This document shows, piece by piece, positions 1-31,476 of a stretch of 64,000 bases of DNA. The position numbers and the translations under genes are program-made. Origin of the DNA: Candidatus Bathyarchaeota archaeon (GTDB lineage: Archaea > Thermoproteota > Bathyarchaeia > Bathyarchaeales > Bathycorpusculaceae); NCBI GenBank assembly GCA_963739305.1, contig CAVTZU010000018.1, forward strand, positions 1 through 64,000, given 5' to 3'. The first letter of the stretch is position 1, and each line of letters starts with the position of its first letter. The notes below the pieces were generated by a model, which saw nothing but the letters and a program-made list of their open reading frames with translations, ran no database searches and was not told where the DNA came from.

Positions 1-28
1 CTTATTCGAAAGCGCGCGCTGACGAACA

Positions 29-549: not shown

Positions 550-685
550 TCCGAGCTTATTGGCAAGTCCTGAGGAAGTCTGAAAGATGCTGGGTTCACA
601 ATATGCGGAGAAGTCTAGCGCGCGCTTAATAGAAACAAGTAGGGGGTGACCTCTCTGGGTTGGAAATGCTGCTCTTTGGCCGTTC

Positions 686-2319: not shown

Positions 2320-2439
2320 ACTTTCTCCCCCGCGCGTGCTGCCTGACCTTTATGTCATTCCTTTAGTAAAACCAATATGACGCAGATGCGCAAAGAGTGC
2401 CATGCGCTTCTTGAAATGAGTTCTCACTTGGTTATGAGG

Positions 2440-2697
2440 TCAGTGCCCGCTAGGTGGCGGAGGCACTTGACGTGCTTGAACATCAACTTTCCTCCCACAA
2501 TACGGGCAGACCGCATAATCCATTCGGATTTGCGCACCGCAGCCAAGACACGTCCGCATCGGAAGTGGAGCGTTGGGAGTGATGGTAGTGATGGTTTTTG
2601 GTCGAGTAAAGTAGTAAAGAATGGCCGCGGGCCAGCAGAATATTATTAAAATTATCAATATCGCAAGACTATATTCTCTTCTTTCTTCCTGCACCAA
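2440..2697 (-). CDS. small membrane protein with C-terminal zinc ribbon
   Basis: TM hairpin followed by CLGC...CPYC; GGAGG upstream. Confidence 0.75.
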   Translation of the reverse strand: MVQEERREYSLAILIILIIFCWPAAILYYFTRPKTITTITPNAPLPMRTCLGCGAQIRMDYAVCPYCGRKVDVQARQVPPPPSGH

Positions 2698-2777
2698 AAT
2701 TTACCCTCCAACGTTAGCTCTTAGTTGAAAACCTTTTGAATTTAAGCCTTTTTGCAACAATGCATAATGTTAGGGTA

Positions 2778-3260
2778 TTAGTAGCCTCGCATAATATCAT
2801 CCAAGTACGAATCTAGACATTTGGTTTTCAAAGCAACTATGTATATCGAGATTGCGTAGAGTCCAATTATGGACATTGCTACTAGAAACATGCTAACCAT
2901 GCCGTTAATCACTAGCAACAGAAAATATGCCTCTGCGATTCCCAACAGGAGACCTGTGCCTACTCGTATCGAGTTTCTGCTTTCTCTAAGCTTACAGCTT
3001 TGCGTAAGCCAATCAACTGTGGCTGTTATGGGAAGAACCGAGATTAGAGGGAGATAAAGCCACAGAGGAAAGCGAAGCCCAATAAAATAGGCAACAAGTA
3101 CTGCTATTAAACTCGAAAATGTTCCTGTGCACCTAGCACATAAATAAACTTTTTTTCCTCTGAACCCCAAACAAATTGTTCTGTGCAGTCTTTCCGGTGG
3201 ATGATGTGATAACACCAGAAATAGAAGATAGCGCCAGTCATGTTTGACTGTTTTTCTCAA
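2778..3260 (-). CDS. DUF2085-like membrane protein
   Basis: HHPPERLHR...CARCTG, VDWLTQ...RESRNSIRVGTG motifs; multiple TMs. Confidence 0.75.
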   Translation of the reverse strand: MRKTVKHDWRYLLFLVLSHHPPERLHRTICLGFRGKKVYLCARCTGTFSSLIAVLVAYFIGLRFPLWLYLPLISVLPITATVDWLTQSCKLRESRNSIRVGTGLLLGIAEAYFLLLVINGMVSMFLVAMSIIGLYAISIYIVALKTKCLDSYLDDIMRGY

Positions 3261-3347
3261 CTACACACTACCTCGGGCATTTCTTTCTAACGCGTGCGCT
3301 TGCATTCCAACCTAAAGGATTGATGAAGGAGAAAAAACGCTCTCAGT

Positions 3348-4064
3348 TCACGAAAGTCGGTTATCAAGTGCATATCGTCTGTGTGATTCTAGGTTCCGAA
3401 GTGACTTACCAGAATTATCGCATCCAAAGATGTCTACGACGCCGTCACCATTCAAGTCAGCGTAGGGGTTCCAATTTGGAGCGCTCTGAGTACTGCCATA
3501 GGCGTTTGCTAGGATTAATGCATCATAAAGGTCCACGACACTGTCTCCATTGATGTCGCCTATCAGTCTTATATGAACACTCCCGTCCTCACTGTTTGAC
3601 TGCAAAGTCTGCCCTGAAGGGTCAGCAACTACAAGACTATCTATGTGCAAAGAGCTCTGACAGTATCTGTTGTACAGCTTGAAAGTCAAATCTATTATGG
3701 TGACTGGCGAGACAGTGCTCATAGGAGATCCGAAGGTCACGTTAGTGCTCATGAAACCGTTCCCTGACTGGAAGTACGTAGGACTAGGCAAGTTTGCATC
3801 TGGCAGAAAAGATACTCCTACTACTGCTATCTGTGTCCCGTTAAAAATCAGTGTCATTTGCACAGAACCGCAATTGCTTACGTTTTGAATAGTTATGTTT
3901 ATGTGAAATCTCATCCCTTGTGAAGGAGAATTGTTTACTGTGTTGGAGGGCTGGACACTTATCAGCGGCGTCATAGTGACAGAAGAGCTTCCATGAACCA
4001 CCAAGGCGCTCAGTGCCACAACAATGGCGCAAGTCCACAAGACAGCTTTTCGATTTTTCCTCAT
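3348..4064 (-). CDS. secreted cohesin + dockerin domain protein (probable 1-bp frameshift near the C-terminus; true stop about 3389)
   Basis: Signal peptide, cohesin-like beta domain, GDINGDSVVDLYD...ADLNGDGVVDIF dockerin repeats; shifted frame continues DAIILVSHFGT*. Confidence 0.8.
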   Translation of the reverse strand: MRKNRKAVLWTCAIVVALSALVVHGSSSVTMTPLISVQPSNTVNNSPSQGMRFHINITIQNVSNCGSVQMTLIFNGTQIAVVGVSFLPDANLPSPTYFQSGNGFMSTNVTFGSPMSTVSPVTIIDLTFKLYNRYCQSSLHIDSLVVADPSGQTLQSNSEDGSVHIRLIGDINGDSVVDLYDALILANAYGSTQSAPNWNPYADLNGDGVVDIFGCDNSGKSLRNLESHRRYALDNRLS

Positions 4065-4170
4065 CGTACCACCTCCTCTTTTCTCCCGAAGAACAAGAAC
4101 AAAATATGGTTTGAATGGACTTTTACGGTTTGTGGAAAAGAGTTCTAGATGCAGGTTAGCGCGCGCGCTT

Positions 4171-4188
4171 GGGGTAAAACTTTACCCC
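4171..4188. repeat. palindromic site GGGGTAAA-AC-TTTACCCC (copy 1)
   Basis: Perfect 8-bp inverted repeat around a central AC, preceded by AGCGCGCGCGCT at 4158-4169. Confidence 0.85.
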
Positions 4189-4203
4189 CAAACCCAAAAA
4201 AAG

Positions 4204-4692
4204 CTATGTCCTTTCAGGGCTTCTTCTCCGCCGAATAATTACAATGACAACTGCGATTATTACAACTATTATTGTGATTAGCAGAATAATCGTCAACGGA
4301 CTGAAAATCTGCACAAAAAATGAGTTTATTACTATCACTGGAAAATTGACCAAGGACGCATTAGCTGGTCCAGTAACAGCAAACTGATAGTTCACTTGCT
4401 CATAAACACCGAACACGTTTGGTGCAATGACATCATAGTTAATTGAACCGTACGGAGGAACATCTCTACGCTCACTCTGTCCCTGCATCTGCACCTGAAT
4501 AGGAAAGGAGTTGTTGTTGAAGATCCAAAAACGAAAATATGCGCCTTCACTCACTATGTGCGCGCCTTCGACGTCGATTCCTTCCAGTGGAGGTCCAGAA
4601 GGGTCGCATCGTCCGAGTGGTTGCGCCAGAATGATAAATGACAACAAACAAGAGAACGTCAACAAAGCGACTATGAATAGACTAACTCTCAA
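4204..4692 (-). CDS. hypothetical exported, C-terminally anchored protein
   Basis: Signal peptide and C-terminal TM followed by RRRR. Confidence 0.7.
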   Translation of the reverse strand: MRVSLFIVALLTFSCLLSFIILAQPLGRCDPSGPPLEGIDVEGAHIVSEGAYFRFWIFNNNSFPIQVQMQGQSERRDVPPYGSINYDVIAPNVFGVYEQVNYQFAVTGPANASLVNFPVIVINSFFVQIFSPLTIILLITIIVVIIAVVIVIIRRRRSPERT

Positions 4693-4737
4693 ATCGAACC
4701 CTCTCCAAATATATCAACACGTTTAGAGCATATTATT

Positions 4738-4873
4738 CTATGTTTTAGAACAGTTGGCAATTCTGGGAGTCCATGTTTGTCTTTCATTTCTCAGATATTG
4801 AGCAAACAGTAAAGCTTCTTCTGAAATCAGAGTTTCAATTTCTTGCTGAGAACTCATTCTCATTCTTCTAATT
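4738..4873 (-). pseudogene. cas1: solo cas1 3'-terminal remnant (copy 1)
   Basis: IRRMRMSSQQEIETLISEEALLFAQYLRNERQTWTPRI aligns with the C-terminus of the 9381-9791 remnant. Confidence 0.75.
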
Positions 4874-4952
4874 GTCTTGTCCCTCGCATGGCTGAATCCA
4901 TTTCTACACAGGCCCATTTTCCATAATCCACCCGTCAGCCCGCAGCAGCAGC

Positions 4953-4975
4953 GTAAAACTTTACCCCAACCAAAC
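4953..4975. repeat. palindromic site (copy 2) GTAAAACTTTACCCCAACCAAAC
   Basis: Same TAAA-AC-TTTA core as 4175. Confidence 0.8.
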
Positions 4976-5030
4976 AAGGTGCGGAAAAGTTATAGTTGTT
5001 CAATAATAAACTGCTACATTGGTGTCCAGA

Positions 5031-5588
5031 TTGCTCGAAGGGAAAAAGGTGAATCTGCGAATGATGGAAAAGGAAGATGTCAACTCCATAGTGGACATTT
5101 TCAGCAACATTCATTCAGAAGACTTTGACCCTATCTCGCTGATGACAAGGTCGGAGATGATGAAAAGATTCGAAAATCCTTCCCCTCTGGAAAGCCTGAC
5201 TCAGAATACGCTTCTTGTGGTGGAGAAGAAAGACAAAGTGAAAATTGGAATCGCCAGACATTTCATCGTGCAACCGCTCGACGCAATGGAAATTGGTTAC
5301 ATCATTGTTCCGTCGGAAAGAAAGAAAGGTAATGGAACCGAGACCGCTCAGATCATGGTCGACTACCTGTTTCTCTCTCGAAACATCGTACGAATACAAG
5401 CGACTGTCGAAACCCAAAACATGGCGTCACAAAGAGTGTTAGAGAAGGTAGGTTTCAGCAGGGAAGGAACCCTTCGAAGAGCCGGGTTCATGAGTGGAAA
5501 GTGGGTAGATGGCTATCTTTACAGCATTCTCAGAGAAGAATGGAAAGAACCCACGATACTAACACGAACAACCTGGGAAATGGAATAA
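5031..5588 (+). CDS. GNAT N-acetyltransferase (RimJ/RimL family)
   Basis: EIGY...ERKKGNGTE...NMASQRVLEKVGFSREG; paralog of 11550-12092; its stop TAA is the start of site copy 3 (TAAAACTTTAC, 5586-5596). Confidence 0.9.
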   Translation: MLEGKKVNLRMMEKEDVNSIVDIFSNIHSEDFDPISLMTRSEMMKRFENPSPLESLTQNTLLVVEKKDKVKIGIARHFIVQPLDAMEIGYIIVPSERKKGNGTETAQIMVDYLFLSRNIVRIQATVETQNMASQRVLEKVGFSREGTLRRAGFMSGKWVDGYLYSILREEWKEPTILTRTTWEME

Positions 5589-5699
5589 AACTTTACAGCC
5601 AAAATCCCAGCAACCGAAGAAGAAGCGAATCAACGAGCTGCAGGTCAGCGCCGAAGCCGGTGAAGGAGGCATATGACAAGGCGGGGTTTGAATGAATGG

Positions 5700-6398
5700 T
5701 TAAAGTATCGTCTCTGGGACTGGCTTTAAGTCGCAGTAGTAGAACCTGTTCTCCCTTCTGACTATGCTCCCCTTCTCAAACTGGATGTTTTTTCCAAATA
5801 TCGGCCCTGCGTATGTAAATGAGTGGAACTCCCCGTTTTCACCACAAGGGTCTACCGCAGACGGGAGTTCCGCCAGAAACCCGTCATCAAACTCCCTTCC
5901 AGCAAAACTCCTGCTTAAAACTTTTGAGTCGATGCAAACCACGATTGCCTTGAAGCCGGTCTTGATGAACTCGCGAGCCATGCTGCTCGTATCCTTTCTC
6001 TTCCAAATAGGGAATAATGCTTTCATTCCAATTCTCGCAAGCTTTTCTTCCCTGTACTTCCTCAGGTCTTCCAAGAAAATGTCCCCAAAAACTACTGCCG
6101 AAACCCCCTGCTTCTTCTGGCGCAGGAGGACTTCCCCCATCCTCTTTTCGTACTCCTCATTCGAGAAGTCTTTTGGAACGCTCACTTCTTCCAACGGCAA
6201 GTCTAGGGATGCGGCTTGTTTTTCGATCAAAGCCTTCCGGACGCCGTGCATGCTGACGCGATCATATTCTTCGGAAAAAGTCGTCAACAGTAAAACTACT
6301 TCAAAACCGTCAGCCTTTCGGAATTCGTGAAGGGCAAATGCGCTGTCCTTGCCCCCGCTCCAAGAAAAAATGACTTTTTGCGGCGCTGCAACAACCAT
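5700..6398 (-). CDS. PP-loop ATPase, diphthine-ammonia ligase/MJ0570-like family
   Basis: SWSGGKDS PP-loop, VFGDIFL, DPCGENGEFHSF. Confidence 0.88.
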   Translation of the reverse strand: MVVAAPQKVIFSWSGGKDSAFALHEFRKADGFEVVLLLTTFSEEYDRVSMHGVRKALIEKQAASLDLPLEEVSVPKDFSNEEYEKRMGEVLLRQKKQGVSAVVFGDIFLEDLRKYREEKLARIGMKALFPIWKRKDTSSMAREFIKTGFKAIVVCIDSKVLSRSFAGREFDDGFLAELPSAVDPCGENGEFHSFTYAGPIFGKNIQFEKGSIVRRENRFYYCDLKPVPETIL

Positions 6399-6516
6399 AC
6401 TATTAGTCTCTGCATGGAGTTATGGATTTTGGCTTTTATAAACACACTTTCGTGCCTAATTCTATAAGGAAAGGGTTTTCTGCAAGTTAAAGTGAATCTC
6501 CTTGGTGGCACTAGCA

Positions 6517-7215
6517 ATGAAGAAGCGGGTCATATTAGTTGGTATAGTTCTTGTGGCATTTGGTGTCATCACGTACGCGATTTTTTCATCAATCATTTTT
6601 TCGCAAACAATAGCTGTGAACGAGTCATTTACAGTGTTGGCCGGTTCCAACGTTCCCAGTTCTTTTCATCTTCCTAATAATGCAGATGTCTCTGGAACAA
6701 TAAATCAAGTTACAGGTCAAACAACGAATGACATAGACTTCTACGTATTTGACAGAGCAAACTATCAAGTTTGGGCTAATGGCGGGCAGAGTAGTGTCTG
6801 GTACATCAAGATTTACAGAGCAACGAGTGGTGCGACATTCAACTTCAGAACAGCCAAGGATGACGACTATTATTTTGTATTTGACAATCCTGGGGTTTTG
6901 TTCAATGGTGAAAGAGCAATCGTTTGGTCTGCTTCATATGAATATAAACCCTATGGACCGTTTGCCTTACCCATTCTTATTTCATTTGTCGCCGTAGGAG
7001 CAATTCTTGTAGCAGGCACAAGTATTTTGGAACTTAAGCACAGAATGGAAAAACTTCGCACTTGCCCAAGATGTGGTCGAAGGATTCCTATTGAGAAAAC
7101 GATATGCCCGCATTGTGGCTTTGACATCGAGAAATCTGTCCAATGCAAATACTGTCACACTTTCTACGATAGTTCTATGCTGAAGTGTCCAAACTGTGGA
7201 GCGCAAAATAAGTAA
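6517..7215 (+). CDS. membrane protein with extracellular beta domain and double zinc ribbon
   Basis: Two TMs, YYFVFDN motif, four CxxC pairs at the C-terminus. Confidence 0.8.
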   Translation: MKKRVILVGIVLVAFGVITYAIFSSIIFSQTIAVNESFTVLAGSNVPSSFHLPNNADVSGTINQVTGQTTNDIDFYVFDRANYQVWANGGQSSVWYIKIYRATSGATFNFRTAKDDDYYFVFDNPGVLFNGERAIVWSASYEYKPYGPFALPILISFVAVGAILVAGTSILELKHRMEKLRTCPRCGRRIPIEKTICPHCGFDIEKSVQCKYCHTFYDSSMLKCPNCGAQNK

Positions 7216-7426
7216 GCGTGCGCGCAACGCAACTTCTCCAAAGTTGTAGATTATGTTTGCGCAGTAGCGAGCGCGCGAGCAAGAACAAGACGTATAGCGA
7301 AAGAAGAGGACAGAAGATACGTTAAAAAACCCGTCCAAACAGAATATTATGATCATTGGGTGACACGTTGCGCCAAAATCCAGACTGAGCAATTTTCTCG
7401 CAAAAGCTCATCGCGTCCTAAAAGGC

Positions 7427-8002
7427 GTGTATAACGCACTGTACGGCTTTGTCCTGCACATTTTCAAAAGCATCAACCGAAGAATCAATCCGAGATTCCC
7501 AGTTTACCGTATGCATGAAGAAACAACTGAACACGTACGACACGCCGTCTACGTATTCATCTGGCTAATCCTACCATCGAGCATAATCTACCTGTTAGGA
7601 CTCCAATTAGCCTTCGGCGAAAACGCATGGGGCTCAATGCTCTGGGGAATAGCGGTCTACTTCTACAGCAACTTCCTACCGGACTTACCCTCAATCAACC
7701 GAAAACAAAAGCTCAAACCCGGATCCACCGACCTTGCGTGGTATAAGAAATACGCACTGCTCCTCTTCGCACCTGTGCTTGTCTGGCTTCTATTCTCCGA
7801 AATACGGTTGAACTGGAGAACTGTTGAAACATACCACAACTTCACATCACTTGCTATCTACGGCATTTTTCTTTTCACGATAGGCTTCTTCGGATTCGCC
7901 GGCTACCCTTTCATACCACGAGATCTCCTCAAGGTCCTATTTTTCGCGTCTGCAGGAATCGCAGGGTTTCTGACCCATTTGAAGGTCGACCAGATCTGGT
8001 GA
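7427..8002 (+). CDS. membrane protein, putative metal-binding hydrolase
   Basis: HVRH, LPDL, YHNF, THLKVD motifs among TMs. Confidence 0.6.
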   Translation: MYNALYGFVLHIFKSINRRINPRFPVYRMHEETTEHVRHAVYVFIWLILPSSIIYLLGLQLAFGENAWGSMLWGIAVYFYSNFLPDLPSINRKQKLKPGSTDLAWYKKYALLLFAPVLVWLLFSEIRLNWRTVETYHNFTSLAIYGIFLFTIGFFGFAGYPFIPRDLLKVLFFASAGIAGFLTHLKVDQIW

Positions 8003-8072
8003 CGACGCGTTCTCACACAAAATATATCCTTTAAGCCAAGCCATATACTCCGCCAAAAGTCGTGTCTTACCC

Positions 8073-9380
8073 GTGTTTGATCCAGTGACCTTGGCTCTTA
8101 TCATCGGCGGCGCAATAATAGTAATAGGTTTTCTTAGTAACTACCTTCTCGAACGCACGGGCTTACCAGACATGTTGTTCCTGGTGGTCCTAGGTATACT
8201 CGTTGGACCAGTAACGGGACTGATAGATGCGACTACCGTTATGGGTTTTGCTCCCTACTTAGCTGGTCTAGCATTGATTTTTATTTTGTTTGATGGGGGA
8301 ATGACCATGAACATCTACCACGTCTTCTCCGAAAGCCCAAGGGCAATAATCCTCGCAGCACTAGGATTCACGATCAGCGCTGTCGTCGCCGGTTTCCTGA
8401 TTTATTTGCTAGTGATCCCAACTTTCTCGCCTCTGTACTCTGCACTTTTCGGAACGATTGTCGGAGGAAGCAGCAGCATCATTGTCATGTCACTCGCCTC
8501 ACGAATCAAGCTCAGCGAAAAAGGTTCAACGGTCCTCCGTCTCGAATCAGCCATCAACGACATCCTATGCATTGTACTCTCCCTCGTCATCATCGAAATA
8601 ATAGTACTCGGAGGAACCGTCGACGTACCGACCATCGCTAGGTCATTAGCAAGCAGGTTCTCCATCGGAGCCATGCTCGGAATAATCATCGGCATCGGCT
8701 GGCTTAGCATTCTGAAACGAATCGCGAAGGCATCTTACTCCTACATGCTTACCCTCGGCATTGCACTACTTGCCTACTCACTCTCAGAAACGCTGGGCGG
8801 AAGTGGAGCGCTCTGTTCACTACTTTTCGGCATTATGCTCGGCAACGAAAAAGAAATCTTCGGAATACTCAAGATGAAAAAGCCGCAGGATCAGGCTGTC
8901 GACCCTGGACTAAAACGGTTCGAATCAGAAATAGCCTTCCTCCTAAGAGCCTTCTTCTTTGTCTACATAGGTTTGATCGTCACGATGCCCAGTCTCACTA
9001 CCGTCGTTGTCGGGGTAGTGCTGGCCCTAGCCCTGCTCTTGATCAGATTCGGAGTCGTAAACCTGGCCACGATAAAGAGCAAACTGGCGCCAGAAAGAGG
9101 AATCATGAGCGTCTTACTTACGAGAGGCCTAGCTTCGGCCGTGCTGGCCACACTCACACTCCAGTACGCAGATCAAGTCAAATATCCAGAAATAGGCCTA
9201 GTTTTCCAAAAGCTTTCACCGCTCTACGTCAACATAACGGTCGTCGTGATACTGGCAACAGCATTAATTGCGACAGTAGGAATTCCACTTCTGAGGTGGA
9301 GAAACAATCACAACAAGGCGAACAATCAGGCAACTGAACAAACACCATCTCAAACGAAGAGAAACAAAGGTGAGTCCTAG
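8073..9380 (+). CDS. cation:proton antiporter (CPA1/NhaP-like)
   Basis: 12-13 TMs; LFDGG, LESAIND, TRGLASAVLA motifs. Confidence 0.92.
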   Translation: MFDPVTLALIIGGAIIVIGFLSNYLLERTGLPDMLFLVVLGILVGPVTGLIDATTVMGFAPYLAGLALIFILFDGGMTMNIYHVFSESPRAIILAALGFTISAVVAGFLIYLLVIPTFSPLYSALFGTIVGGSSSIIVMSLASRIKLSEKGSTVLRLESAINDILCIVLSLVIIEIIVLGGTVDVPTIARSLASRFSIGAMLGIIIGIGWLSILKRIAKASYSYMLTLGIALLAYSLSETLGGSGALCSLLFGIMLGNEKEIFGILKMKKPQDQAVDPGLKRFESEIAFLLRAFFFVYIGLIVTMPSLTTVVVGVVLALALLLIRFGVVNLATIKSKLAPERGIMSVLLTRGLASAVLATLTLQYADQVKYPEIGLVFQKLSPLYVNITVVVILATALIATVGIPLLRWRNNHNKANNQATEQTPSQTKRNKGES

Positions 9381-9791
9381 CAACTAATCAAAGCAAAACT
9401 ACAACCTTATCTTGGTTTTCTCCACGGTATGGCCAAAGGAAAGCCCAGTTTGATCTGTGACTTCATGGAATTGTATCGTTATCTAGTTGATGATTTTGTT
9501 ATTCAGTATTGCAGAAAACTGAAGAGGAAAGATTTCACTGTGAAATCAAAAGACTCTTCGACAAAACGGAAGGGTAAGAGGGAGTATCTGAACGATTCTG
9601 AGACGCACGATTTTGTCAGGGCTCTGAATCAGTACTTCCAAACCAAAATCGGGATGCCGAGAGTTAGAATGGGTGAACGACAAGAGATTGAAACGCTAAT
9701 CAATGAAGAGGCTTTGCTGTTTGCAGCATATTTGAGGAATGAAAAGCAAACATGGGCTCCTAGAATCACCATCCCATCCGTTTCTGATTAG
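9381..9791 (+). pseudogene. cas1: solo cas1 C-terminal remnant (copy 2)
   Basis: In-frame LIKAKLQPYLGFLHGMAKGKPSLICDFMELYR contains the Cas1 GFLH...SLxxD.ME..R catalytic segment; N-terminal part of the gene absent. Confidence 0.85.
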
Positions 9792-9845
9792 GAGCGCGCG
9801 CTTGCTATTTTCTACTTCGAAAATTTCTTCAAGAGAAAAAAAGGG

Positions 9846-11183
9846 TTATGGGTAGTGTTGGTTGTAGTGGCTTGCCAACAGTATTGCGTCGTAGATGTCG
9901 ACGATGCTGTCTCCGTTTATGTCTGCGTTGGGGTTCCAGTTTGCTTTTCCCGGCGTAGAATCGAAAGCACCTGCCAGCAATAATGCATCATAGATGTCAA
10001 CTACCCTGTCGCCGTTGACATCGCCAGGCAGCCCGCGGGCGCTGTACAGGTAGCCAACGTAGATCGGATCGTTTTGAATTTGCATTCCGTCCCAGACTGG
10101 AAAACAAATCCTGTATATCAACGAAGATGCGTTGTAATCTAATGTTATATCAGGCCATGAACCGCCGAAGAGGTCGTTAAGGTTCAGGTAATCTCTGAAA
10201 AACATTGTCTGCCATACAACTGGGCCGTAAATCTCAGTCGGAATACTAGAAAGGGCTGCAGCTTCGGCTTTTGCCGGGTGAGTTTCATTGTTTTCGTTTC
10301 GGCTTAGAGTGTAATTGCTGCGGAGAACAAAATCGTACGCTTGTGTCTCGCCCACGGCGATCTGGGCAGTGTCAGCCTCCACGGCTGAATCGTTCGCGCT
10401 TGTCGAGTTGTAAAGTTGACCGTTCACGTAGGTTGAGTATGGTTCCGACGTATAGGTTGACGTTGGGTAGAGCAAAGCCAGGCTCAGGCCGTCTAATGAG
10501 AACTGTGAGGAGTCCAATACGGTTATGTTAGCAACTTCTCCGATGTCGAAGTTTGTTTTCAGGTTTGAGACGTTGCCGTTGAGGCTGAAATCGTAGCTTA
10601 CGGTCAGATGGTCCAGTATCAATTTGGCTGTAACGCCGATGGGAACCGTTGCGTTCTGGAGGTATGCGTAGACGTTTACGTAGGTGAAACCCCACTGGTA
10701 GTGCGGAACGTCGTCGTCCATCGTCTTCTGTATTGGGATTATGCTGTAGCTGTCGCTCATGTTTATGTACATGCAATACAGGATTTCGCTGTCTCCAGAA
10801 GTGAAGTTGGCCTGCGGAATGCCATCGCCGTTTTGGTCTCTGTAGACCTCCATCTTGTCCAATGCGCTTACCACAAAAACCTCCGTACCATCAGACAATA
10901 GTAAGTGCTGCCCCACAAGATTGGCGATCGGCGTAGGGTAGGGGTAGTCGGAGTTAGTGTACAGCACGTAGTTGATGATCTGAGTGCCGGAAACGTTAAT
11001 CCAATCATACCAAATGAGGCAAGGCGAATCTGGGATGGCAATGGTACCATTTGCATATTCCATATTATCAACAGGCAAAGTTGAGGACGCATCTGCAAAG
11101 TTAGGCATACGAAACTGTAGGAACGGTGTGAAACACAAAGTGACTAACAACACTCCGAGCATGACTAACATGAAAAGCTTCAT
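9846..11183 (-). CDS. secreted protein with C-terminal dockerin
   Basis: Signal peptide; GDVNGDRVVDIYD...ADINGDSIVDIYD. Confidence 0.85.
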   Translation of the reverse strand: MKLFMLVMLGVLLVTLCFTPFLQFRMPNFADASSTLPVDNMEYANGTIAIPDSPCLIWYDWINVSGTQIINYVLYTNSDYPYPTPIANLVGQHLLLSDGTEVFVVSALDKMEVYRDQNGDGIPQANFTSGDSEILYCMYINMSDSYSIIPIQKTMDDDVPHYQWGFTYVNVYAYLQNATVPIGVTAKLILDHLTVSYDFSLNGNVSNLKTNFDIGEVANITVLDSSQFSLDGLSLALLYPTSTYTSEPYSTYVNGQLYNSTSANDSAVEADTAQIAVGETQAYDFVLRSNYTLSRNENNETHPAKAEAAALSSIPTEIYGPVVWQTMFFRDYLNLNDLFGGSWPDITLDYNASSLIYRICFPVWDGMQIQNDPIYVGYLYSARGLPGDVNGDRVVDIYDALLLAGAFDSTPGKANWNPNADINGDSIVDIYDAILLASHYNQHYP

Positions 11184-11512
11184 CTTTTCACTATCCCTCT
11201 CGCGGTTGTCTTATAGAGAAGATTTAATTATTAATACTAACCCTTGGTACACCACGTTCGAGAAACTGGTACGGTCAGCGTATTGACGTCAACCCTGGCG
11301 CCTTCGCCATATCACGACAAATCTGTTGTTCCACAGCTCAATCAACGTTTCGCCCTCGCGCCCGCTAGATTCTGATGGTACCTTTCTGTTCCATCTATGT
11401 TCATACCTGTATTCAGAACCAGGTATACAACCAATGGAAGCCTATTACTGGTCGTCCGTCGTGGTTGTCGTCGTTCGTGGTCTTTTAAGAAATCCGTCGT
11501 CGTCCGTCGTAT

Positions 11513-11547
11513 GGTTGGTTGGGTTTGGGGGCAAAGTTTTATCCAAC
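11513..11547. repeat. palindromic site (copy 4, reverse orientation) with GGTT-rich flank
   Basis: GGTTGGTTGGGTTTGGGGGCAAAGTTTTATCCAAC, immediately after the stop of the GNAT gene. Confidence 0.75.
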
Positions 11548-11549
11548 AG

Positions 11550-12092
11550 CTATCTTGAAGCAGTTTTTGTCAGTATTTTTGGTTCTTTCCATTCTTCTCT
11601 CAGGATACTGTAGATATAGGAATCTACCCATTCTCCTCTCATGAAAAAGCTTTTACGAAGTGTTCCTTCCTTCTTAAACCCAACTTTCTCCAAGAGTTTG
11701 TAAGAAGCCACATTTCTTGGGTCAGTTTGAGCTTGAATACGTTTTGTGTCTTTTGAGAGAAACAAGTAATCCACCATTAACTGCGTAGCTTCAGTGCCGT
11801 AGCCTTTTCCCCTCTCACTTGGCACTAAACTATAGCCTATTTCCAGTTGCTTGCCCGCAACATGCAGGACATAAAAATGACCTATGAAACCAATCTTGCT
11901 TCCGTCCTTTTTCTCTATAATGAATGACTTCTCTTCATGAGGGCCCTCAAACATCTTTTCTGCTTCTGTTCTGGACACCTGATGTAGAGGATTGTATTCA
12001 CCAAAGACCTCAGGCTTGTTGAACCATTCTGCAATTAGTGGCAAATCCTCTTTCTCCATAATCCTCAAATTCACATTTTTACCTTCAAGCAA
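11550..12092 (-). CDS. GNAT N-acetyltransferase (RimJ/RimL family)
   Basis: EIGYSLVPSERGKGYGTE...NVASYKLLEKVGF; YSILREEWKEP shared with the 5031 paralog. Confidence 0.92.
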   Translation of the reverse strand: MLEGKNVNLRIMEKEDLPLIAEWFNKPEVFGEYNPLHQVSRTEAEKMFEGPHEEKSFIIEKKDGSKIGFIGHFYVLHVAGKQLEIGYSLVPSERGKGYGTEATQLMVDYLFLSKDTKRIQAQTDPRNVASYKLLEKVGFKKEGTLRKSFFMRGEWVDSYIYSILREEWKEPKILTKTASR

Positions 12093-12129
12093 GTTAACTC
12101 ACCAACCCAACATTTCAAGTCGATTCGGC

Positions 12130-12215
12130 TATAACTTTTCCGCAAAACCAAAAACCGGGTTAAAAGGAGGGAGAGTTATGTCGAAAGCGTAGATCAAAAA
12201 AACGCTGGAATCAGT
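12130..12215. repeat. about 85-bp intergenic repeat, copy 1 (TATAACTTTTCCGCAAAACC...ATGTCGAAAGCGTA...AAAAACGC)
   Basis: Aligns with 12776-12855. Confidence 0.75.
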
Positions 12216-12271
12216 TGTCGTTCACAAAAGACAAGAAAAGAAAGTGGCGACATGATGTGTTTTTGTTGTTC

Positions 12272-12727
12272 TTAACTCTTCTTTAGCTTCCTAAGCATTG
12301 AACCAGCATAGAGCCCTATGAAACTAACCACCAAACCAATGATAACGAGCATAGACCCCATAAGTGCCGAATAAGCGGACCAATCATAATCTGTCCACCC
12401 ACTCGTATTGAACGTGCTATTCATAGAGTCCCTGAGCCAAGGGGTTGCAAGGGGATTGGCGAACCAAATCGAGAAGAATATCAACAATGTAAAGGCTGAC
12501 AGAACAACAATAACTCCAGTTGCTCTAATTCTTGACTCCTCCTGAATCTTCAAGGCAAACACGTAGCCGACAACCAATGAAGCCACCAGAAACGCAATAA
12601 TAAAAGCAAGGTTGTCACTCATCTGGTTAGAATTGAGTGGAGCAAATGCAACCATCAAGAAAGCATCAAGGATTAAACCCACCAAAACCAAAGAAACCGT
12701 AGCTATAATCACGTTACCAAATTTCAA
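12272..12727 (-). CDS. hypothetical 4-TM membrane protein
   Basis: Hydrophobic helices; GGAGGTGA RBS upstream. Confidence 0.8.
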   Translation of the reverse strand: MKFGNVIIATVSLVLVGLILDAFLMVAFAPLNSNQMSDNLAFIIAFLVASLVVGYVFALKIQEESRIRATGVIVVLSAFTLLIFFSIWFANPLATPWLRDSMNSTFNTSGWTDYDWSAYSALMGSMLVIIGLVVSFIGLYAGSMLRKLKKS

Positions 12728-12775
12728 ACAATCACCTCCTTCGAATCAAATAATCACGTGTGTTCATGGTTCAGT

Positions 12776-12855
12776 TATAACTTTTCCGCAAAACCTAGAA
12801 CTAGCTCATAAGGACTGATATGTCGAAAGCGTAAAACAGAAAAACGCCAGAACCC
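12776..12855. repeat. about 85-bp intergenic repeat, copy 2
   Basis: TTATAACTTTTCCGCAAAACC-TAGAACTAGCTCATAAGGACTG-ATATGTCGAAAGCGTA. Confidence 0.75.
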
Positions 12856-12992
12856 ACGGGTCAAACGGGCTTAAGAACCATGTGTCCAGACTGTCCAACA
12901 GGAAAATACACTTTCCAAACTACATCTTGGAGCGATTTGCAAGTTAAAATCGAGTTAATAAATGGGCTCGTCAGAATAGTCAATGGACATTC

Positions 12993-13820
12993 ATGACGAA
13001 TCTAATCTCAGTGTCTAGTGCGCCCATTGCTGGGTTTGAGAACAAAAAATACTACGACCTTATCGGCACATTTGACGTGATGAAAAAGGTCTTCAGCGAA
13101 TCGGTTGTTGATGGTTTTGAGTTGCAACTTGAGCCAGAGTGGGACCGTGAAAATGCACCCTTAACCGATGGTGATTTTGCTGATTGGACTAGGACTCCAA
13201 AATACACAACTGAAGAAGTTGTAGAACTAATCAAAAGTCAGCATTTGCCAATTCTGTCTGTTCATGCAAGCAGGGACGTTGGAAACTATCTTTGCTCTGA
13301 TAAGGAACGAGATTGGCAGAAAGGAAAACATGTCATTTATGATTCATTACTGATTGCTGAAAACTCGGGAGCGGAGATTTGTGTTTTTCACATTTGGGAT
13401 ACTTGGAAAACCAGTTTCGACCTACAAAAAGTTGAGAGTATGCTTCTGGAAGTGGCGGACCAATTCCCAAAAGTGAAGGCATCAGTTGAAAACATTCCAA
13501 CGCATTTAGAAGGTTATACTCCTTTTGGGCTCGTCAAATCATTTGAATACGTGACTATGGATTTGAGATGGGCAGCGATGTATAAGGAACTTGACGCTTT
13601 CGAGTCAATAATCAACGGTATTGTAAATGTTCATCTGCGAGGGAGTCTAAAAGAGAGTAGATGGGTCCTAGAGCGTTCAGACTTTGACTTCTATGAAACC
13701 TTGAACAAAATAAGAAAGGAATGGGGATACTCGGGCTTGCTCACAGTCGAGCCTGAAGGTAGAAGAGAGGGGTCATCGTTTGAAAATTTCCTAGAAGCGA
13801 TGCGCACCTTGAAGACATAG
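12993..13820 (+). CDS. sugar phosphate isomerase/AP endonuclease 2 family TIM barrel
   Basis: SVH, VFH, SVENIP, TMDL, NVHLRG, TVEPE metal-ligand pattern. Confidence 0.75.
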   Translation: MTNLISVSSAPIAGFENKKYYDLIGTFDVMKKVFSESVVDGFELQLEPEWDRENAPLTDGDFADWTRTPKYTTEEVVELIKSQHLPILSVHASRDVGNYLCSDKERDWQKGKHVIYDSLLIAENSGAEICVFHIWDTWKTSFDLQKVESMLLEVADQFPKVKASVENIPTHLEGYTPFGLVKSFEYVTMDLRWAAMYKELDAFESIINGIVNVHLRGSLKESRWVLERSDFDFYETLNKIRKEWGYSGLLTVEPEGRREGSSFENFLEAMRTLKT

Positions 13821-14010
13821 ATTCCTATTTGAGTCCAGCTTTAACATTTCCGCAACAAAACTGTATACTCGATTCCGATACTACCTATATACCTACCCTA
13901 TTATGGTCTTGATTATACTATACCCCTCTTCCATGATAACAGACAAGACAGTGTATCCTGAACCGTGTATACTGCACTGACAATGACTGCCTTTTTCCAC
14001 GGCAGGGCAT

Positions 14011-14073
14011 CGTCGTCAGGGTTGGTTGGTTGGGGTAAAGTTTTATCCCAACCCAACCCCAACAACAACGACG
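14011..14073. repeat. palindromic site (copy 5) inside an extended imperfect inverted repeat
   Basis: CGTCGTCAGGGTTGGTTGGTTGGGGTAAA-GT-TTTATCCCAACCCAACCCCAACAACAACGACG. Confidence 0.85.
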
Positions 14074-14125
14074 GAAAACATTTATCTCTTCTGAAAACCA
14101 TCCACTGCTGGATGCGTGAAGTTGA

Positions 14126-14828
14126 ATGGGCTTGAAGGAAGAGGTACAAGAAATGGCAACACACCTAGGAGCTGACATTTTTGGAGTTGCTTCCGCTGAT
14201 CATTTGAGTGATGCTCCATCGGGGCATCGAACCTAAGGATGTCCTGCCAAATGCGAAGTCTGTTATTGTCATTGGGATGAAGATGCTCGACGCTCAGACG
14301 GACATCCTACCTGTCGATGGAGAGCATTTTGCAGCGTCTCCACGACAGGAAATGTTCCGAGGGCACAATACCTTCATTTCGCAGGACCTTGACAGGATAG
14401 GATATTCCATTGCAAGGTTTCTTGAGAAGAAAGGTTTCAAAGCCTATCATCAGATGGCTTCAACGGGAGGAACGGATACACGTTATCTTATGGGCTTGTT
14501 GTCGCTAAAACACATGGCTGTTCAGGCTGGTCTCGGGGTTCTTGGCTATAACAGTCTGCTCATAACGCAAGAGTTCGGGCCAAGATTACGATTGGCAGCT
14601 ATAGTGACGAACGCAGAAATGAAACCTGACACGCCTATAAACAAGAATTTCTGTAAAACCTGCCAGAACCCATGCATATCCTTGTGCCCAGCGAAGGCGC
14701 TAAAGAAGCCAAGTCGCGAATCCCACTACGAACTCAACAAGTTTGCTTGTTCTCAATACCTAAGCACTCGACCAACATGCAGCATATGCCTAAAGGTGTG
14801 TCCCGTAGGAAGCCAACGCATAAAGTGA
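14126..14828 (+). CDS. epoxyqueuosine reductase (QueG)-like 2x[4Fe-4S] protein, 1-bp frameshift near 14230
   Basis: MGLKEEVQEMATHLGADIFGVAS...APSGHR/PKDVLPNAKSVIV; AGLGVLGYNSLL...FGPRLRL; CxxCxxxCxxxCP and CxxCxxxCP. Confidence 0.8.
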
Positions 14829-14869
14829 GCTAAGAACTAGCACGCGCTGAGAACGCACATAAACTTGTG

Positions 14870-15263
14870 TTAGCTGGGCAGATTATCAATTCTTGGTTTC
14901 CATGACTGCCTCTCGTTCCTTAGAAACTTACTAATAAAAAAGCCTCTTCATTGATTAACGTTCAAGCTCTTGTTGTTCACCCATTCTTACTCTTGGAATT
15001 CTGATTTTGCTCTGGAAGTACGGATTCAAAGCCTTGACAAAATCGTGCGTCTGAGAATCGTTCGGATATTCTCTCTAACCCTTTCGCCTAGTTGAAAAGT
15101 CTTCTGATTTCATTGTGAAGTCTTTTCTGTTCAGTTTTCTGCAATACTGAATAACGAAGTCATCAACTCAAATAACGATAAATTCCATGAAATCACAGAT
15201 CAAACTAGGCTTTCCTTTTGCGATGCTGTGCAAGAATCCAAGATAAGGTTCAAGCTTTGCTCT
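14870..15263 (-). pseudogene. cas1: solo cas1 C-terminal remnant (copy 3, decayed)
   Basis: Reverse strand reads RAKLEPYLGFLHSIAKGKPSLICDFMEFYR...KDFTMKSEDFSTRRKG*REY...IPRVRMGEQQE with indels and a stop; colinear with 9381-9791; absent from the ORF track. Confidence 0.85.
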
Positions 15264-15420
15264 CTACTTCATATTGAACCTAGTGACTCTTGGGTTGTTC
15301 GGAATCTACTGGATTTACGTCTTGCTGAAGGACCCGAATGAACACTTTAGATACCACGTACAGATAGAAGATCAGCTCTTGACCACTTTAGAAACAGGTG
15401 TTACCTAAGATCTAAGTATT

Positions 15421-15458
15421 GCGCGCGCGCTATGCTAAAGTTTTATCGCAAATCCAAA
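15421..15458. repeat. GC palindrome + degenerate site (copy 6)
   Basis: GCGCGCGCGCTATGCTAAA-GT-TTTATCGCAAATCCAAA mirrors the 4159-4200 arrangement. Confidence 0.65.
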
Positions 15459-15753
15459 TCTACTTAACGCGACTTTTCTAACCTTCTTTTGAAGATTTTG
15501 ACTCTTCTCTTCTTAGTGAGCGTTTGTTCTGATCTTAGAACAACCTGTTCAAACACAGGAATAGCAGACAGCTCAAGAGACCCAAAAGAACTCTTGTCGA
15601 CATCATCGTGGGCAGCTTGGGTAACCTTGTTCTGTTTCCTGCTGCCACCTCCATTCCGCAATTGACCAGTTGTTTTGCTCACATCTAGATCCACGGATTC
15701 GAGCAGCACTGAAGCACGAATATCCTTCTGTCGCACTTGATTAATGTGCAACT

Positions 15754-15912
15754 TCAACATCCAATCGTGCAAAAAACTACGCCAAGGACTAACCCAAGAA
15801 CCAAGTGAACCCCCAACTGAGGCGCTGTCTGAGAAAAAAAGGCCGGGGGGTAGGGTGTTTTAGACCTGAAAACACTCAAAATCCATGTTGACCAGTCCTT
15901 CTCTCGACCATC
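15754..15912. repeat. conserved dispersed element, copy A
   Basis: GAAAAAAAGRCCGGGGGGTAGGGTGTTTTAGAC-N10-TCAAAAYCCATGTTGA..AGTCC shared with 31140-31342. Confidence 0.85.
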
Positions 15913-16145
15913 ACACACCTGCAAAAACGTGATAGCCGTCTTTCTGGAACATCTTTCCACAAATGATATCTAAACATTCAAACAACAATAGTACTTGGGA
16001 GAAGGGAAAGTTGTCGCAGAAACAACTAACTAACCAGCCTTTTCTGTCGTCATACTCATCTTCTTCACGTAACCACCCTTCCTACGCATCGTGCCCTTCT
16101 CGAACCGTTAGGTTTTCAACACTGCAAAAAAGGAGGCGATAAGAC

Positions 16146-17153
16146 ATGAATAAAAGAAACAAAATCATCCTCGCCATCGCCCTCGTATGCATCTTCACAA
16201 CCATAATCGTGATGACCAGAATCGGCCAAGGCCAACAACTAACCCCCACATTGTACGTTGACCCGCCACAGACGATATTCAACAGTCTCGTCGTGGGACA
16301 ACGCTTCAACATCAACATCGATGTCCTCAACGTAAGCGACCTCAAAACCTACGAATTTACGCTCAGCTTCAACCCCAACATGCTCACCGTCGTCAGCGAA
16401 TCCTTCCTGCCTGAAGCAAACCTGCCCACTCCAAACTGGCAAATCAACGGGTACGCAGGAACCTTCTGGACCAACGTAACCTACAACACCCCACTCAACA
16501 GCGTGCCACCCGTCACGATCGCAACAATCACCTTCAAAATCTCCAACTACGGAACAAGCCCGCTCACCTTCACAAACGACAAACTCGGCAACACCACAGG
16601 CCTACTCATGCCCCACGAAACAGTCGGCGGAAGCGTATCCGTCCTGAACCACGACGTAGCCATAACCAGCATAACCGCTTCAACAAACGAAACCTATGAT
16701 GGACGAATCGTCAACGTAACAACAACCGCACAAAACCTCGGGTTGGCAACTGAAAACTTCACCGTCAACATCTACGCAGACACCAACCTCATCGGAACCA
16801 CAAGCGTGTTTAACCTACTGCCTAACCAAACAACAATCATCGAAACGTCATGGAACACCAGCGGCTACGCAAACATGACAGCATACACATTAAGCGCCCA
16901 AGCAACCCCCGTCCCATACGAAACCAACCTCGCCAACAACGCCCTCACAGACGGAACCGTAAAAATCAAAATAATAGGCGACGTCAACGGAGACGGAACC
17001 GTCAGCATACTCGACCTACAAGCATGGGACGCAGCCTACGGAAGCAGTCAAGGAATGCCAAACTGGAATCCTCAAGCAGACCTCAACAACGACGGAACAG
17101 TCGACAAAGCAGACGGAATGCTGATCATACTGAACTACGGAAACCACCTATAA
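16146..17153 (+). CDS. secreted cohesin-CARDB-dockerin protein
   Basis: Signal peptide; cohesin-like domain (FLPEANLPTP, cf. FLPDANLPSP in the 3348 gene); HDVAITSIT CARDB; GDVNGDGTV...ADLNNDGTVD. Confidence 0.85.
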   Translation: MNKRNKIILAIALVCIFTTIIVMTRIGQGQQLTPTLYVDPPQTIFNSLVVGQRFNINIDVLNVSDLKTYEFTLSFNPNMLTVVSESFLPEANLPTPNWQINGYAGTFWTNVTYNTPLNSVPPVTIATITFKISNYGTSPLTFTNDKLGNTTGLLMPHETVGGSVSVLNHDVAITSITASTNETYDGRIVNVTTTAQNLGLATENFTVNIYADTNLIGTTSVFNLLPNQTTIIETSWNTSGYANMTAYTLSAQATPVPYETNLANNALTDGTVKIKIIGDVNGDGTVSILDLQAWDAAYGSSQGMPNWNPQADLNNDGTVDKADGMLIILNYGNHL

Positions 17154-17238
17154 CCCCCCATTTCTCTTTTTTCAAAACTCTTTTTCCCCAAACGCCCGCA
17201 TATATATTAACCAACAACAGAGTAATCTAACCCCCACA

Positions 17239-17317
17239 GGGCCCGTGGTCTAGTCTGGATTATGACACTGGCCTGCGAAGCCGGAAATCCTGGGTTCAAA
17301 TCCCAGCGGGCCCGCCA
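17239..17317 (+). tRNA. tRNA-Arg(GCG)
   Basis: GGGCCCG acceptor stem; CTGGC-CTGCGAA-GCCGG anticodon arm; GGTTCAAATCC; encoded CCA. Confidence 0.95.
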
Positions 17318-17427
17318 CCACACTAACCGAACCCGATCTATCGCACAAGAAACTCGTCAAAGAACACGACTTTAATAGGACCAAACCAACAAAAGAAAAC
17401 AGATAGCGCATCATCCAAGGTGAACTT

Positions 17428-18040
17428 ATGCAACCCGCAACGACTAACACACGAAAATTCGTCGCAGTCGACCCAAGCAAATGCACAGGCTGCGGCATAT
17501 GCGAATACGCGTGCACACAAGAAAAAAACGAGCACTGGGACCCCCTAAAATCAAGAATACGCGTCATCCGCCTCACGCCGATGCTCAACACCACAATGAC
17601 CTGCAGATTCTGCAAGAACGCTCCATGCGTCAAAGCCTGCTCTGAAAAAGCCCTAACCCAAACAGAAACAACCGGCCTCCTGACCATCAACGAGCGCAAA
17701 TGCAACGGCTGCGACTGGTGCATCCAAGCCTGCCCCTACGGCGGAATAACCCTTGACCCCGACAGACGCGTCGTCATAACCTGTGACCTATGCAACGGAG
17801 AACCAAAATGCATCGAATTCTGCCCAGAAGAAGCCCTAGAACTCGTTTCAGATGACGAAGCCGTCGAAAGAAAATGGATCACCGCCCTCGAAAAAATCCC
17901 CGCGCAAGCCGAAAAAATCACGAACGCCGTCAAAAAGAAAGAATGGACCAAGCATCATGTCAGAGGCAGAAAAAAGAGCGAAGAAAACCACTGAGAAGCT
18001 CGAAAACATAAGCAAAAGAAAACAAACAAAAGAGAAATGA
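17428..18040 (+). CDS. 4Fe-4S dicluster protein (probable frameshift near 17950; ORF track ends at 17994)
   Basis: Four CxxCxxxC-type motifs (CTGCGICEYAC, CRFCKNAPCVKAC, CNGCDWCIQACP, CDLCNGEPKCIEFCP). Confidence 0.85.
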
Positions 18041-18208
18041 TGCATCGGAAAGCCTAGACTATCGATTCAAGTCGGATAGTTTCCCGTTCTCTGATCTTCT
18101 TGCACCACTGGCAACAGGTGAACGTGCCAGATTGTATGTTTGAAAAAGAAAATTCTCTTAAGCACGTTTGCACACTTGCATCGAAGGCAAACTCTTAGGA
18201 GACTACAA

Positions 18209-19923: not shown

Positions 19924-19943
19924 CCAATCTAGTCGTCCAGTCT

Positions 19944-31342: not shown

Positions 31343-31476
31343 AGTCCCTCACTCAACCCATCCTCCTCCCCTTTTTCTTCGGGTCTAGCGCGCGCTATCT
31401 GGACGCTGGGTCAGCAAGGTAAATAAACCAATGCAGTCTAAGTAAGGGAAGCTGCAGAACTTTCACGGTGAAATGA

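Follow-up and report, generated by a model that had tools for sequence, protein, structure and literature searches.

We analysed the first 64 kb of contig C18 (the window) of a Candidatus Bathyarchaeota genome of 2.32 Mb in 36 contigs, with a contamination of 7.8% and a marker-based completeness of 97%, a figure that says little about accessory genes; its close protein relatives carry the label Bathyarchaeia, and the best-matching sequencing runs were peat metagenomes. The region of ∼3.3–17.2 kb in this window is best read as a flexible genomic island lying to the left of a tRNA-Arg gene and composed of modules of one to three genes. Its junction motifs, which recur throughout the genome, are a ∼45-nt site, a variant (sibling) of this site and TA(GC)4-5TA runs, and three truncated pieces of cas1 are found among the modules. 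The original prediction had taken the locus for an array of gene cassettes inserted by a solo Cas1; its observation proved real, but the headline Cas1 mechanism was not supported, and the explanation that we came to favour, with due reserve, is recombination between motif copies, with the cas1 pieces as remnants of cargo. The features of the island are as follows (window coordinates, strand in brackets).

3312-4149: paralogous module (90% identity), ending just before the junction at 4157
4157..4206 (+): junction, with a (GC)5 run at 4159-4168 followed by full site 1 (core 4174-4185; fold z -1.4)
4204..4692 (-): 162-aa signal-peptide/membrane-anchored protein of no Pfam family; on contig C30, a 41% paralogue adjoins a site
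4747..4872 (-): cas1 remnant A, reduced to a tail of ∼40 residues (∼305-347 in the full solo Cas1), 71-78% identity
4953..4995 (+): half-site 2 (core 4953-4964, left arm lost) and an inverted variant site (4980-4995)
5019..5588 (+): GNAT acetyltransferase (PF13302, E 1.2e-16), a paralogue of 11550-12092
5574..5610 (+): degenerate site 3, whose core is at 5585-5596 and which overlaps the stop codon of the GNAT gene
7277..9384 (+): two-gene module, a 191-aa membrane protein and a Na+/H+ exchanger (8073-9380; PF00999, E 1.5e-39), 90% to a sister species
9381..9791 (+): cas1 remnant B, an open 136-codon frame (PF01867 positions 207-280 of 283, E 1.6e-14)
9794..9801 (no strand): (GC)4 run, 3 nt past remnant B, a module border
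9846..11183 (-): 445-aa exported dockerin protein (PF00404, E 2e-7)
11516..11552 (-): site 4, with one mismatch and without its left arm (core 11531-11542), 7 nt past the GNAT stop codon
11549..12155 (-): GNAT module (gene 11550-12092) with a promoter-like variant site (12123-12145), 91-96% to sister species
12156..12820 (-): membrane-protein module (gene 12272-12727) with a variant site (12769-12791) at its end
12821..13855 (+): TIM-barrel-like module (gene 12993-13820), 82% to a sister species, with a degenerate variant site (13833-13855) at its end
14017..14060 (-): full site 5 (core 14035-14046; fold z -2.2), preceded by a repeated spacer (13863-14018)
14208..14828 (+): 206-aa Fe-S protein with weak Fer4 matches only; the stretch 14073-14836 is 81% to a sister species
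14873..15263 (-): cas1 remnant C, a pseudogene with stops and frameshifts (residues ∼217-347)
15421..15466 (-): junction, with a (GC)5 run at 15421-15430 beside site 6 (core 15435-15446, right arm lost)
17239..17317 (+): tRNA-Arg(GCG), the right border of the variable region, where conserved synteny with relatives starts

The modules were 81–96% identical to their counterparts in sister species, versus ∼72% for the core genes to the right of the tRNA-Arg gene. Their order was shuffled at the same borders between species; one sister genome, for example, has the TIM-like module directly beside the GNAT module in a different order, with these borders unchanged. These comparisons show that modules are shared between species within a single Bathyarchaeia genus. 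In two studies, metagenome contigs carried joints from 12155 to 11553 (in tandem) and from 12791 or 12145 to 14022, which lend weak support, their sides being only 21–36 nt long at 90% likeness; uncovered stretches are uninformative. The summed contig depth of the bins covering 11340–12673, among them those of the GNAT module, was 5–50x that of the flanking bins in four metagenome runs.

The cassette island itself thus held up, with sites at module borders, breakpoints of strain-level gain and loss at the site and the above contrast between modules and core. Both predicted GNAT cargo genes were confirmed with Pfam, while the predicted TIM barrel scored under the Pfam cut-off (29 versus 31.1 bits) and the predicted QueG-like protein gave only the weak Fer4 matches (E 0.003–0.009). 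The proposed unit of 11532–14036 has its borders at sites and is itself made of three single-gene modules split by the variant site at 12130, 12776 and 13833. We also observed that exported cohesin/dockerin-type proteins were frequent island cargo, in the window (3348–4064, 9846–11183 and 16146–17153) as well as on contigs C2 and C8, with Dockerin_1 matches and, in one protein, Cohesin and CARDB matches in addition.

At the right border, two sister species carry an integrase gene ∼190 nt from the same tRNA-Arg gene. No integrase was found in this window or adjoining its cas1 copies, no att repeat of the tRNA-Arg gene was found in 1–17200, and an Rfam search of 1–20000 returned the tRNA-Arg only. 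Elsewhere in the window, 29491–29605 (-) resembles both halves of a tRNA-Arg with extra sequence between them and may be an intron-containing tRNA gene uncalled by ARAGORN. Two integrase genes that are 96% identical (C13:2165-3157 and C15:3447-4418, G000) have 5′ ends overlapping tRNA-Pro genes, an arrangement known from archaeal integrases whose gene is split upon integration.

The 10-mer TAAAACTTTA occurs exactly five times in the window, where 0.15 copies were expected and none of 100 shuffles reached five, and a sixth copy at 11532–11541 has one mismatch. These are the six sites of the original prediction, in their predicted places, but their predicted palindromic nature needs correction, the core being asymmetric and only two of the six (cores at 14035 and 4174) folding into a hairpin-like form. 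Genome-wide, we found 41 copies of the 10-mer on 15 contigs, and a profile derived from them identified 51 distinct sites on 16 of the 36 contigs. The full site of ∼45 nt reads (GGTTT)n-GG-ATAAAACTTTA-CCCC-(AAACC)n, in which GG-ATAAAACTTTA-CCCC is the conserved block; in the position matrix, the left arm is G/T-rich, the right arm is C/A-rich and the 12-nt core between them is asymmetric. The matrix also fits two 11-nt inverted arms around a 6-nt centre (GGTTTGGGATA AAACTT TACCCCAAACC), with the asymmetric AAACTT invariant in 45–51 of the 51 copies.

The sites were mostly intergenic and clustered. Forty-one of the 51 lie outside crude open reading frame (ORF) calls of at least 90 aa and 10 overlap such calls; 34 have a neighbour within 5 kb, compared with a mean of 9.5 and a maximum of 23 in 2000 random trials. 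Only the six window copies are near cas1, the other 45 being far from any cas1 piece. Of 10 other genomes of the genus, 8 contained the exact 16-mer of the site; beyond the genus, it was present in 3 of 14 genomes within the family (1–2 copies each) and in none of 16 genomes of the same order, and the reversed control gave no match bar one. With 24 exact 16-mers, this genome has the most sites in the genus. The site is a genus-wide intergenic element and is not special to cas1; its distribution proved independent of cas1 but not of cargo borders.

Some candidate properties of the site were rejected. A hairpin requirement did not agree with arm pairing of only ∼40–50% beyond the core and with the four window copies that do not fold, and a larger repeat unit did not agree with a copy-to-copy similarity confined to about -20 to +35 around the core, barring strain duplicates, overlapping windows and a few paralogous-flank matches. 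The core resembles the tRNA promoters (BRE/TATA) of this genome (GGGATAACCTTTATTC and GGGGAAACATTTATTTC), and on account of this likeness the site probably also serves cassette transcription. A promoter-only reading was dismissed, as the gene ends facing the 41 non-ORF sites gave no clean rule: (5′,3′) 16, (5′,5′) 9, (3′,5′) 9 and (3′,3′) 7. We also noted two inverted 1-kb copies, 96% identical and each with a site, in C10:112553-114727 (G000), forming a large palindrome around 113.6 kb.

Direct evidence on how the site is used came from filled and empty forms within the assembly. Contig pairs of 90–99% identity, mostly at contig ends, amount to ∼97 kb of the whole assembly, and this duplication indicates a second strain in the bin, which fits the 7.8% contamination estimate. 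In an unbiased self-comparison of the assembly, six internal differences were detected between colinear contig pairs. Contig C8 has two sites 2.67 kb apart where C30 has one, with flanks 99.3% identical, and C2 has two sites 0.6 kb apart where C3 has one. In both of these canonical pairs, the empty site joins the left arm of one copy to the right arm of its partner; what they have in common is GGATAAAACTTTACCCC, a 17-nt core, showing a reciprocal crossover inside this core between two different sites. Since the flanking arms differ, there is no target-site duplication, that is, not the duplicated target that Cas1 or a casposase would leave.

The third difference, 1.2 kb between C2 and C3, lies at degenerate sites with the breakpoint in the left arm or just outside. 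The fourth is a 4.2-kb insert between two copies of the 10-nt TAGCGCGCGC, of which the empty form has a single copy; the fifth is a replacement of 2.0 versus 2.9 kb between GC runs; and the sixth adjoins a tRNA-Leu gene. Five of the six differences are therefore located at the site, a degenerate site or GC runs, and all of the contigs with these differences are cas1-free.

The variant site GGTTCAGCTATAACTTTTCCGCAAAACC has 22 copies in the genome, versus 1 for the reversed control; it occurs in the window at 4981, 12130 and 12776, in each case 24–50 nt ahead of a gene start, and as a degenerate copy at 13833. The copy at 4980–4995 is a BRE/TATA-like promoter motif 24–39 nt before the GNAT start. 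Alternating GC runs, a second junction motif that the original prediction did not note, number 351 in the genome at a length of at least 8 nt, compared with 15–39 for other 8-mers of like kind, and their consensus TA-GCGCGCGC-TA, i.e. TA(GC)4-5TA, is about ten-fold over-represented. These runs lie outside crude ORFs, which cover 84% of the sequence, in 281 of 351 cases (80%), at a median of 63 nt from a gene end, and they are found near gene ends genome-wide and not in islands alone; runs of the TAGCGCGCGC type pre-exist throughout the genome. In the window they are at 618–625, 4159–4168, 9794–9801, 15421–15430, 31166–31173, 31388–31395 and 63015–63023, and those of the island (4159, 9794 and 15421), together with partial runs at 7220–7276 just before the module at 7277, are all at module borders.

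The three cas1 3′ ends were found in their predicted places by Pfam (PF01867, with the E-value of 1.6e-14 for remnant B confirming that the peptide is Cas1) and by sequence matches, but they did not turn out to be remnants of one gene, since their mutual DNA likeness of 75–85% points to different copies. All three are 5′-truncated, and they were truly cut, as the missing space is taken by other genes or sites. Remnant B has the active-site H, D and E, while the N-terminal domain and the first catalytic E are missing. It is fused 4 nt past the exchanger stop codon, at the point where the 90%-identical block shared with a sister genome ends, and that genome has no cas1 there. The arrangement of remnant A, a site followed by ∼95 nt and a cas1 tail, is kept in one sister species. 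Insertion of a cas1 tail into a conserved promoter-gene unit, considered by comparing the window with C30, was rejected because the paralogues are too distant (41%).

No Cas1 match was found in the genome outside the window, and hence no intact cas1 that could act in trans, as had been proposed. As predicted, cas2, PolB and a CRISPR array were missing too: Cas2 and the protein-primed PolB (PF03175) had no match in the genome (the RNA-primed PolB, PF00136, was not searched), and no CRISPR array was detected by TRF in the window, a crude genome scan yielding one coding repeat only. The claim of Cas1-mediated insertion was not supported on several counts, namely the 45 of 51 sites with no cas1 piece nearby, the insertions and deletions on cas1-free contigs, the crossover with differing arms, the lack of a fixed distance or orientation between cas1 pieces and sites, and the lack of terminal inverted repeats at full relatives. 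A Cas1 role is contradicted for the ∼45-nt site itself, and the three pieces look like inactive passengers and not like the engine of the island.

Full-length relatives gave a picture of the family from which these pieces derive. A 347-aa relative is 62% identical to remnant B, and the full-length solo Cas1 has 1916 database relatives at E ≤ 1e-10; the Cas1 domain is present in all of the 120 relatives listed, most of which are ∼340–350 aa long, and up to three distinct members occur on one 2.46-Mb contig. The residues E164, H229, D241 and E244 are kept in eight full copies. Full solo cas1 loci have no cas2 or CRISPR array alongside, and a canonical cas1-cas2-cas4-cas3 locus found in one sister genome encodes a Cas1 only 26–28% identical to the solo family. 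Around full solo cas1 copies, the DNA flanks showed no conservation and neighbours recurred at the protein level only. No convincing terminal inverted repeats were found around three full or near-full copies, and no polymerase domain was found in 8 neighbours of two full-length relatives. A search of the literature on solo Cas1 and casposons in Bathyarchaeota/Bathyarchaeia gave no title or abstract describing this family or these motifs.

At five loci, cas1 recurs within a five-gene module, comprising a weakly Csa3-like gene that overlaps the cas1 start (PADLOC, E 3e-4) and three unknown genes of about 145–230, 120–155 and 310 aa (L022:7321-10946; also L044, L045, L046 and L048). One unknown partner matched Pfam RecX_HTH2 below the cut-off (E 1.9e-4, 22 versus 26 bits), two weak matches to function-unknown PHROG families were obtained (E 0.0016 and 0.0042), and the partner genes had no other family match in Pfam, PADLOC or PHROGs; none of the four was found in this genome. 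In five of the six loci with enough flank, the full solo cas1 is within 6 kb of sites and its gene group is bounded by sites or GC runs, which suggests that the solo-cas1 module is itself cargo, one more cassette. Downstream of cas1 in L022 (11901–15598), a row of genes looks by eye like a putative ubiquitin-like/E1/E2/JAB-type set with an Ntn-hydrolase-like gene.

A search with the full protein in 11 genomes of the genus yielded 47 matches, which fall into 41 loci: 1 canonical, 3 complete or almost so, and 37 fragments. The 3′ end is kept in 32 of the 37 fragments, and 21 are tail-only pieces whose first residue falls between 281 and 323. A detection effect may account for part of this bias, since the tail is the best-conserved part of the solo Cas1. 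Among 23 truncated pieces inspected in the genus, 7 start no more than 12 nt from a GC run, and for 3 a site core lies upstream at a distance of up to 110 nt; several pieces have a GC run within ∼30 nt past the stop codon. Homology ends at or within ∼35 nt past the stop codon in all 23 solo-family copies (24 aligned), and inverted pairs of cas1 tails were seen in both arrangements.

Taking all of this together, our best explanation is a flexible island jointed by short motifs, whose modules are exchanged by recombination, most likely by a tyrosine recombinase, and whose cas1 pieces are cargo remnants; as a whole we regard it as evenly poised between right and wrong. Species of one genus would exchange modules encoding GNATs, exported dockerin proteins, transporters and others, and gain, loss and replacement of these modules would come about when two motif copies recombine reciprocally. 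At the ∼45-nt site, a circular cassette with its own site would recombine with a chromosomal site, the exchange falling in the 17-nt core, and the solo-cas1 module would have been truncated when neighbouring modules were swapped. A tyrosine recombinase is the most likely catalyst at the site, being favoured by the 11-6-11 layout read from the position matrix, with recombination by short homology as a close second. The genome has 15 matches to PF00589, and Xer-like genes are present.

Several results weigh against this explanation. None of the 15 tyrosine recombinase matches is closer than 1.3 kb to a site, and a recombinase linked by its phyletic pattern did not emerge, the one family checked being spread order-wide. 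Searches of the genome gave no integron integrase (TIGR02249, best 34.9 bits versus a cut-off of 265), no Y1/RAYT transposase (PF01797, no match) and no serine recombinase, a candidate that the AC-centred palindrome had prompted and that was rejected. The 17-nt identical core with partly similar arms could suffice for homologous recombination, in which case a dedicated system is not required. The filled and empty cases come from other contigs of the assembly and none from this window, where four of the six sites are half-sites that have lost one arm and the exchanger/cas1 junction at 9384 is motif-free. Neighbouring sites share their orientation in 17 cases and oppose it in 8 (p 0.11), and site positions relative to gene starts and ends fit neither promoters nor terminators cleanly. 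The cassette model does not account for the marked preference of the cas1 remnants for the 3′ end (32 of 37), and the cargo reading merely accommodates the co-localisation of remnants and sites across the genus.

We then compared the locus with known systems. Additive flexible genomic islands adjoin tRNA genes, and this island likewise has a variable stretch abutting a tRNA gene, strain- and species-level differences in gene content, surface-protein and acetyltransferase cargo and, in two sister species, an integrase beside the same tRNA gene; it differs in having no integrase or partial tRNA repeat here and in its defined short motifs at internal junctions. Integron cassette arrays, including CALINs (attC clusters without an integrase), have been reported in archaeal metagenome-assembled genomes (PMC9668308). 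The likeness lies in short, often one-gene modules, imperfectly palindromic sites between them, no nearby integrase and a filled/empty pattern that fits a circular cassette recombining site-to-site. Unlike integrons, no IntI was found here, the site has a conserved centre and low-complexity arms (by eye, the reverse of attC sites, which are conserved in structure, variable in sequence and have R/L boxes) and folds in two of the six window copies only, and the genes lie on both strands, with promoter-like motifs inside modules and with many small scattered site clusters; integron cassettes are co-oriented, mostly promoterless and adjacent to attI.

The dif (pdif) modules of Acinetobacter plasmids, moved by XerC/XerD (PMC6449649, PMC13141974), are alike in being accessory modules bounded by many sites of the 28-bp type (11-nt arms, 6-nt centre), in shuffling between replicons or species and in having no recombinase inside the modules. 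The match is one of layout only, as suggested by the position matrix, and the present case differs in lying on an archaeal chromosome, not plasmids, and in flanking sites that are mostly direct, not inverted (17 of 25 neighbouring pairs). All casposons carry PolB, terminal inverted repeats and target duplications (PMC4046053). Casposons and Cas1-solo groups 1 and 2 share with this locus a cas1 in genomic islands without CRISPR or cas2, and group 2 also shares catalytic residues kept in full-length relatives; unlike casposons, no intact Cas1, protein-primed PolB or inverted repeats were found here, and the conserved partners are the weakly Csa3-like gene and the three unknown genes. The cas2 and CRISPR array that accompany cas1 in a CRISPR adaptation module were not found beside it, and neither was the Y1 (IS200/IS605-like) transposase partner (PF01797) of REP/RAYT repeats in the genome.

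The most serious alternative, which we nevertheless consider unlikely, is that there is no dedicated system and that all three motifs are common signals of intergenic DNA (a bidirectional BRE/TATA promoter, terminator palindromes, and protein-binding or Z-DNA-prone runs) travelling with transcription units in a passive island. Being short, shared and palindromic, the site, its variant and the GC runs would be the points where incoming DNA, once taken up, preferentially recombines by general homologous or microhomology-mediated pathways. The regulatory role is to be taken seriously because of the likeness of the core to tRNA promoters and the position of the variant site at promoter distance from three gene starts (4981, 12130 and 12776), and start codons lie 25–120 nt from many sites in either direction. 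The presence of GC runs near gene ends genome-wide, the failure to find a linked recombinase in the genome and the joining of tandem GNAT modules without a canonical site agree with such a passive origin. On the other hand, the site is genus-specific and strongly clustered in islands, not spread over promoters; its invariant asymmetric centre and inverted arms exceed the needs of a TATA box; it shows no clean orientation rule relative to genes; and the exchange falls inside the 17-nt core in both canonical pairs (C8/C30 and the 0.6-kb case of C2/C3), although the 1.2-kb C2/C3 breakpoint is in the left arm or just outside.

An amended form of the Cas1 model appears improbable to us. In this form, other members of the population would encode a catalytically intact solo Cas1 that inserts cargo at palindromic motifs like spacers into CRISPR repeats, and the cas1 pieces would mark former copies of the enzyme gene. 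The large solo family does keep its catalytic E, H, D and E with no cas2 or CRISPR array beside it, 37 remnants in 11 genomes share their islands with the sites, a GC run marks the start of 7 of 23 remnants, and the marker-based completeness estimate is little informative on an accessory cas1. The 10-nt direct repeat TAGCGCGCGC around the 4.2-kb insert, of which the empty form has one copy, could represent a duplicated target, yet GC runs are already present in hundreds of intergenic regions and the arms on the two sides of site-flanked inserts differ, so that these inserts show no duplication. This genome, in which no intact cas1 was found, nevertheless has the most sites in the genus and recent polymorphisms at 99.3% flank identity; full copies lack terminal inverted repeats, the protein-primed PolB was not found, the DNA around full copies is not conserved and the cas1 gene group is itself bounded by motifs. 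We give equally little credence to a two-junction cassette exchange system, in which a 28-bp Xer-like core site would act beside TA(GC)nTA and a Cas1 with its Csa3-like partner would insert gene-sized DNA at GC runs with a 10-nt duplication and without PolB. Least probable of all, and very doubtful, is that the cas1 3′ end is an attachment target, such that integrative elements carrying the last ∼130 nt of solo cas1 insert there and each event adds a tail copy, as with tRNA 3′ halves. This would suit the kept 3′ ends (32 of 37, 21 tail-only with starts at 281–323), the homology ending at or within ∼35 nt past the stop codon in 23 solo-family copies and the many archaeal-type integrases in the genus, but tail copies point either way with respect to longer pieces nearby, no intact cas1 stands at an array end, start points are scattered over 40 residues, decayed copies are found preferentially at the tail, the most conserved part, and no integrase adjoins the window copies.

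For the Cas1 family, the locus illustrates that cas1 fragments beside repeats do not imply Cas1 activity. At the same time, a solo family that is catalytically intact, as judged by its residues, and has many truncated copies raises the question of what Cas1 does without CRISPR or PolB; insertion by such a Cas1 at GC runs, if true, would be a gene-scale relative of spacer acquisition that works without PolB. Returning to the favoured explanation of exchange by recombination between motif copies, the locus is probably a new variant of cassette-type genome plasticity. If the motifs are true recombination sites, they would constitute an archaeal cassette system able to work with no integron integrase and no transposase carried by its modules, and such a system would help to explain how surface-protein and acetyltransferase genes are exchanged among species of uncultured peat Bathyarchaeia.

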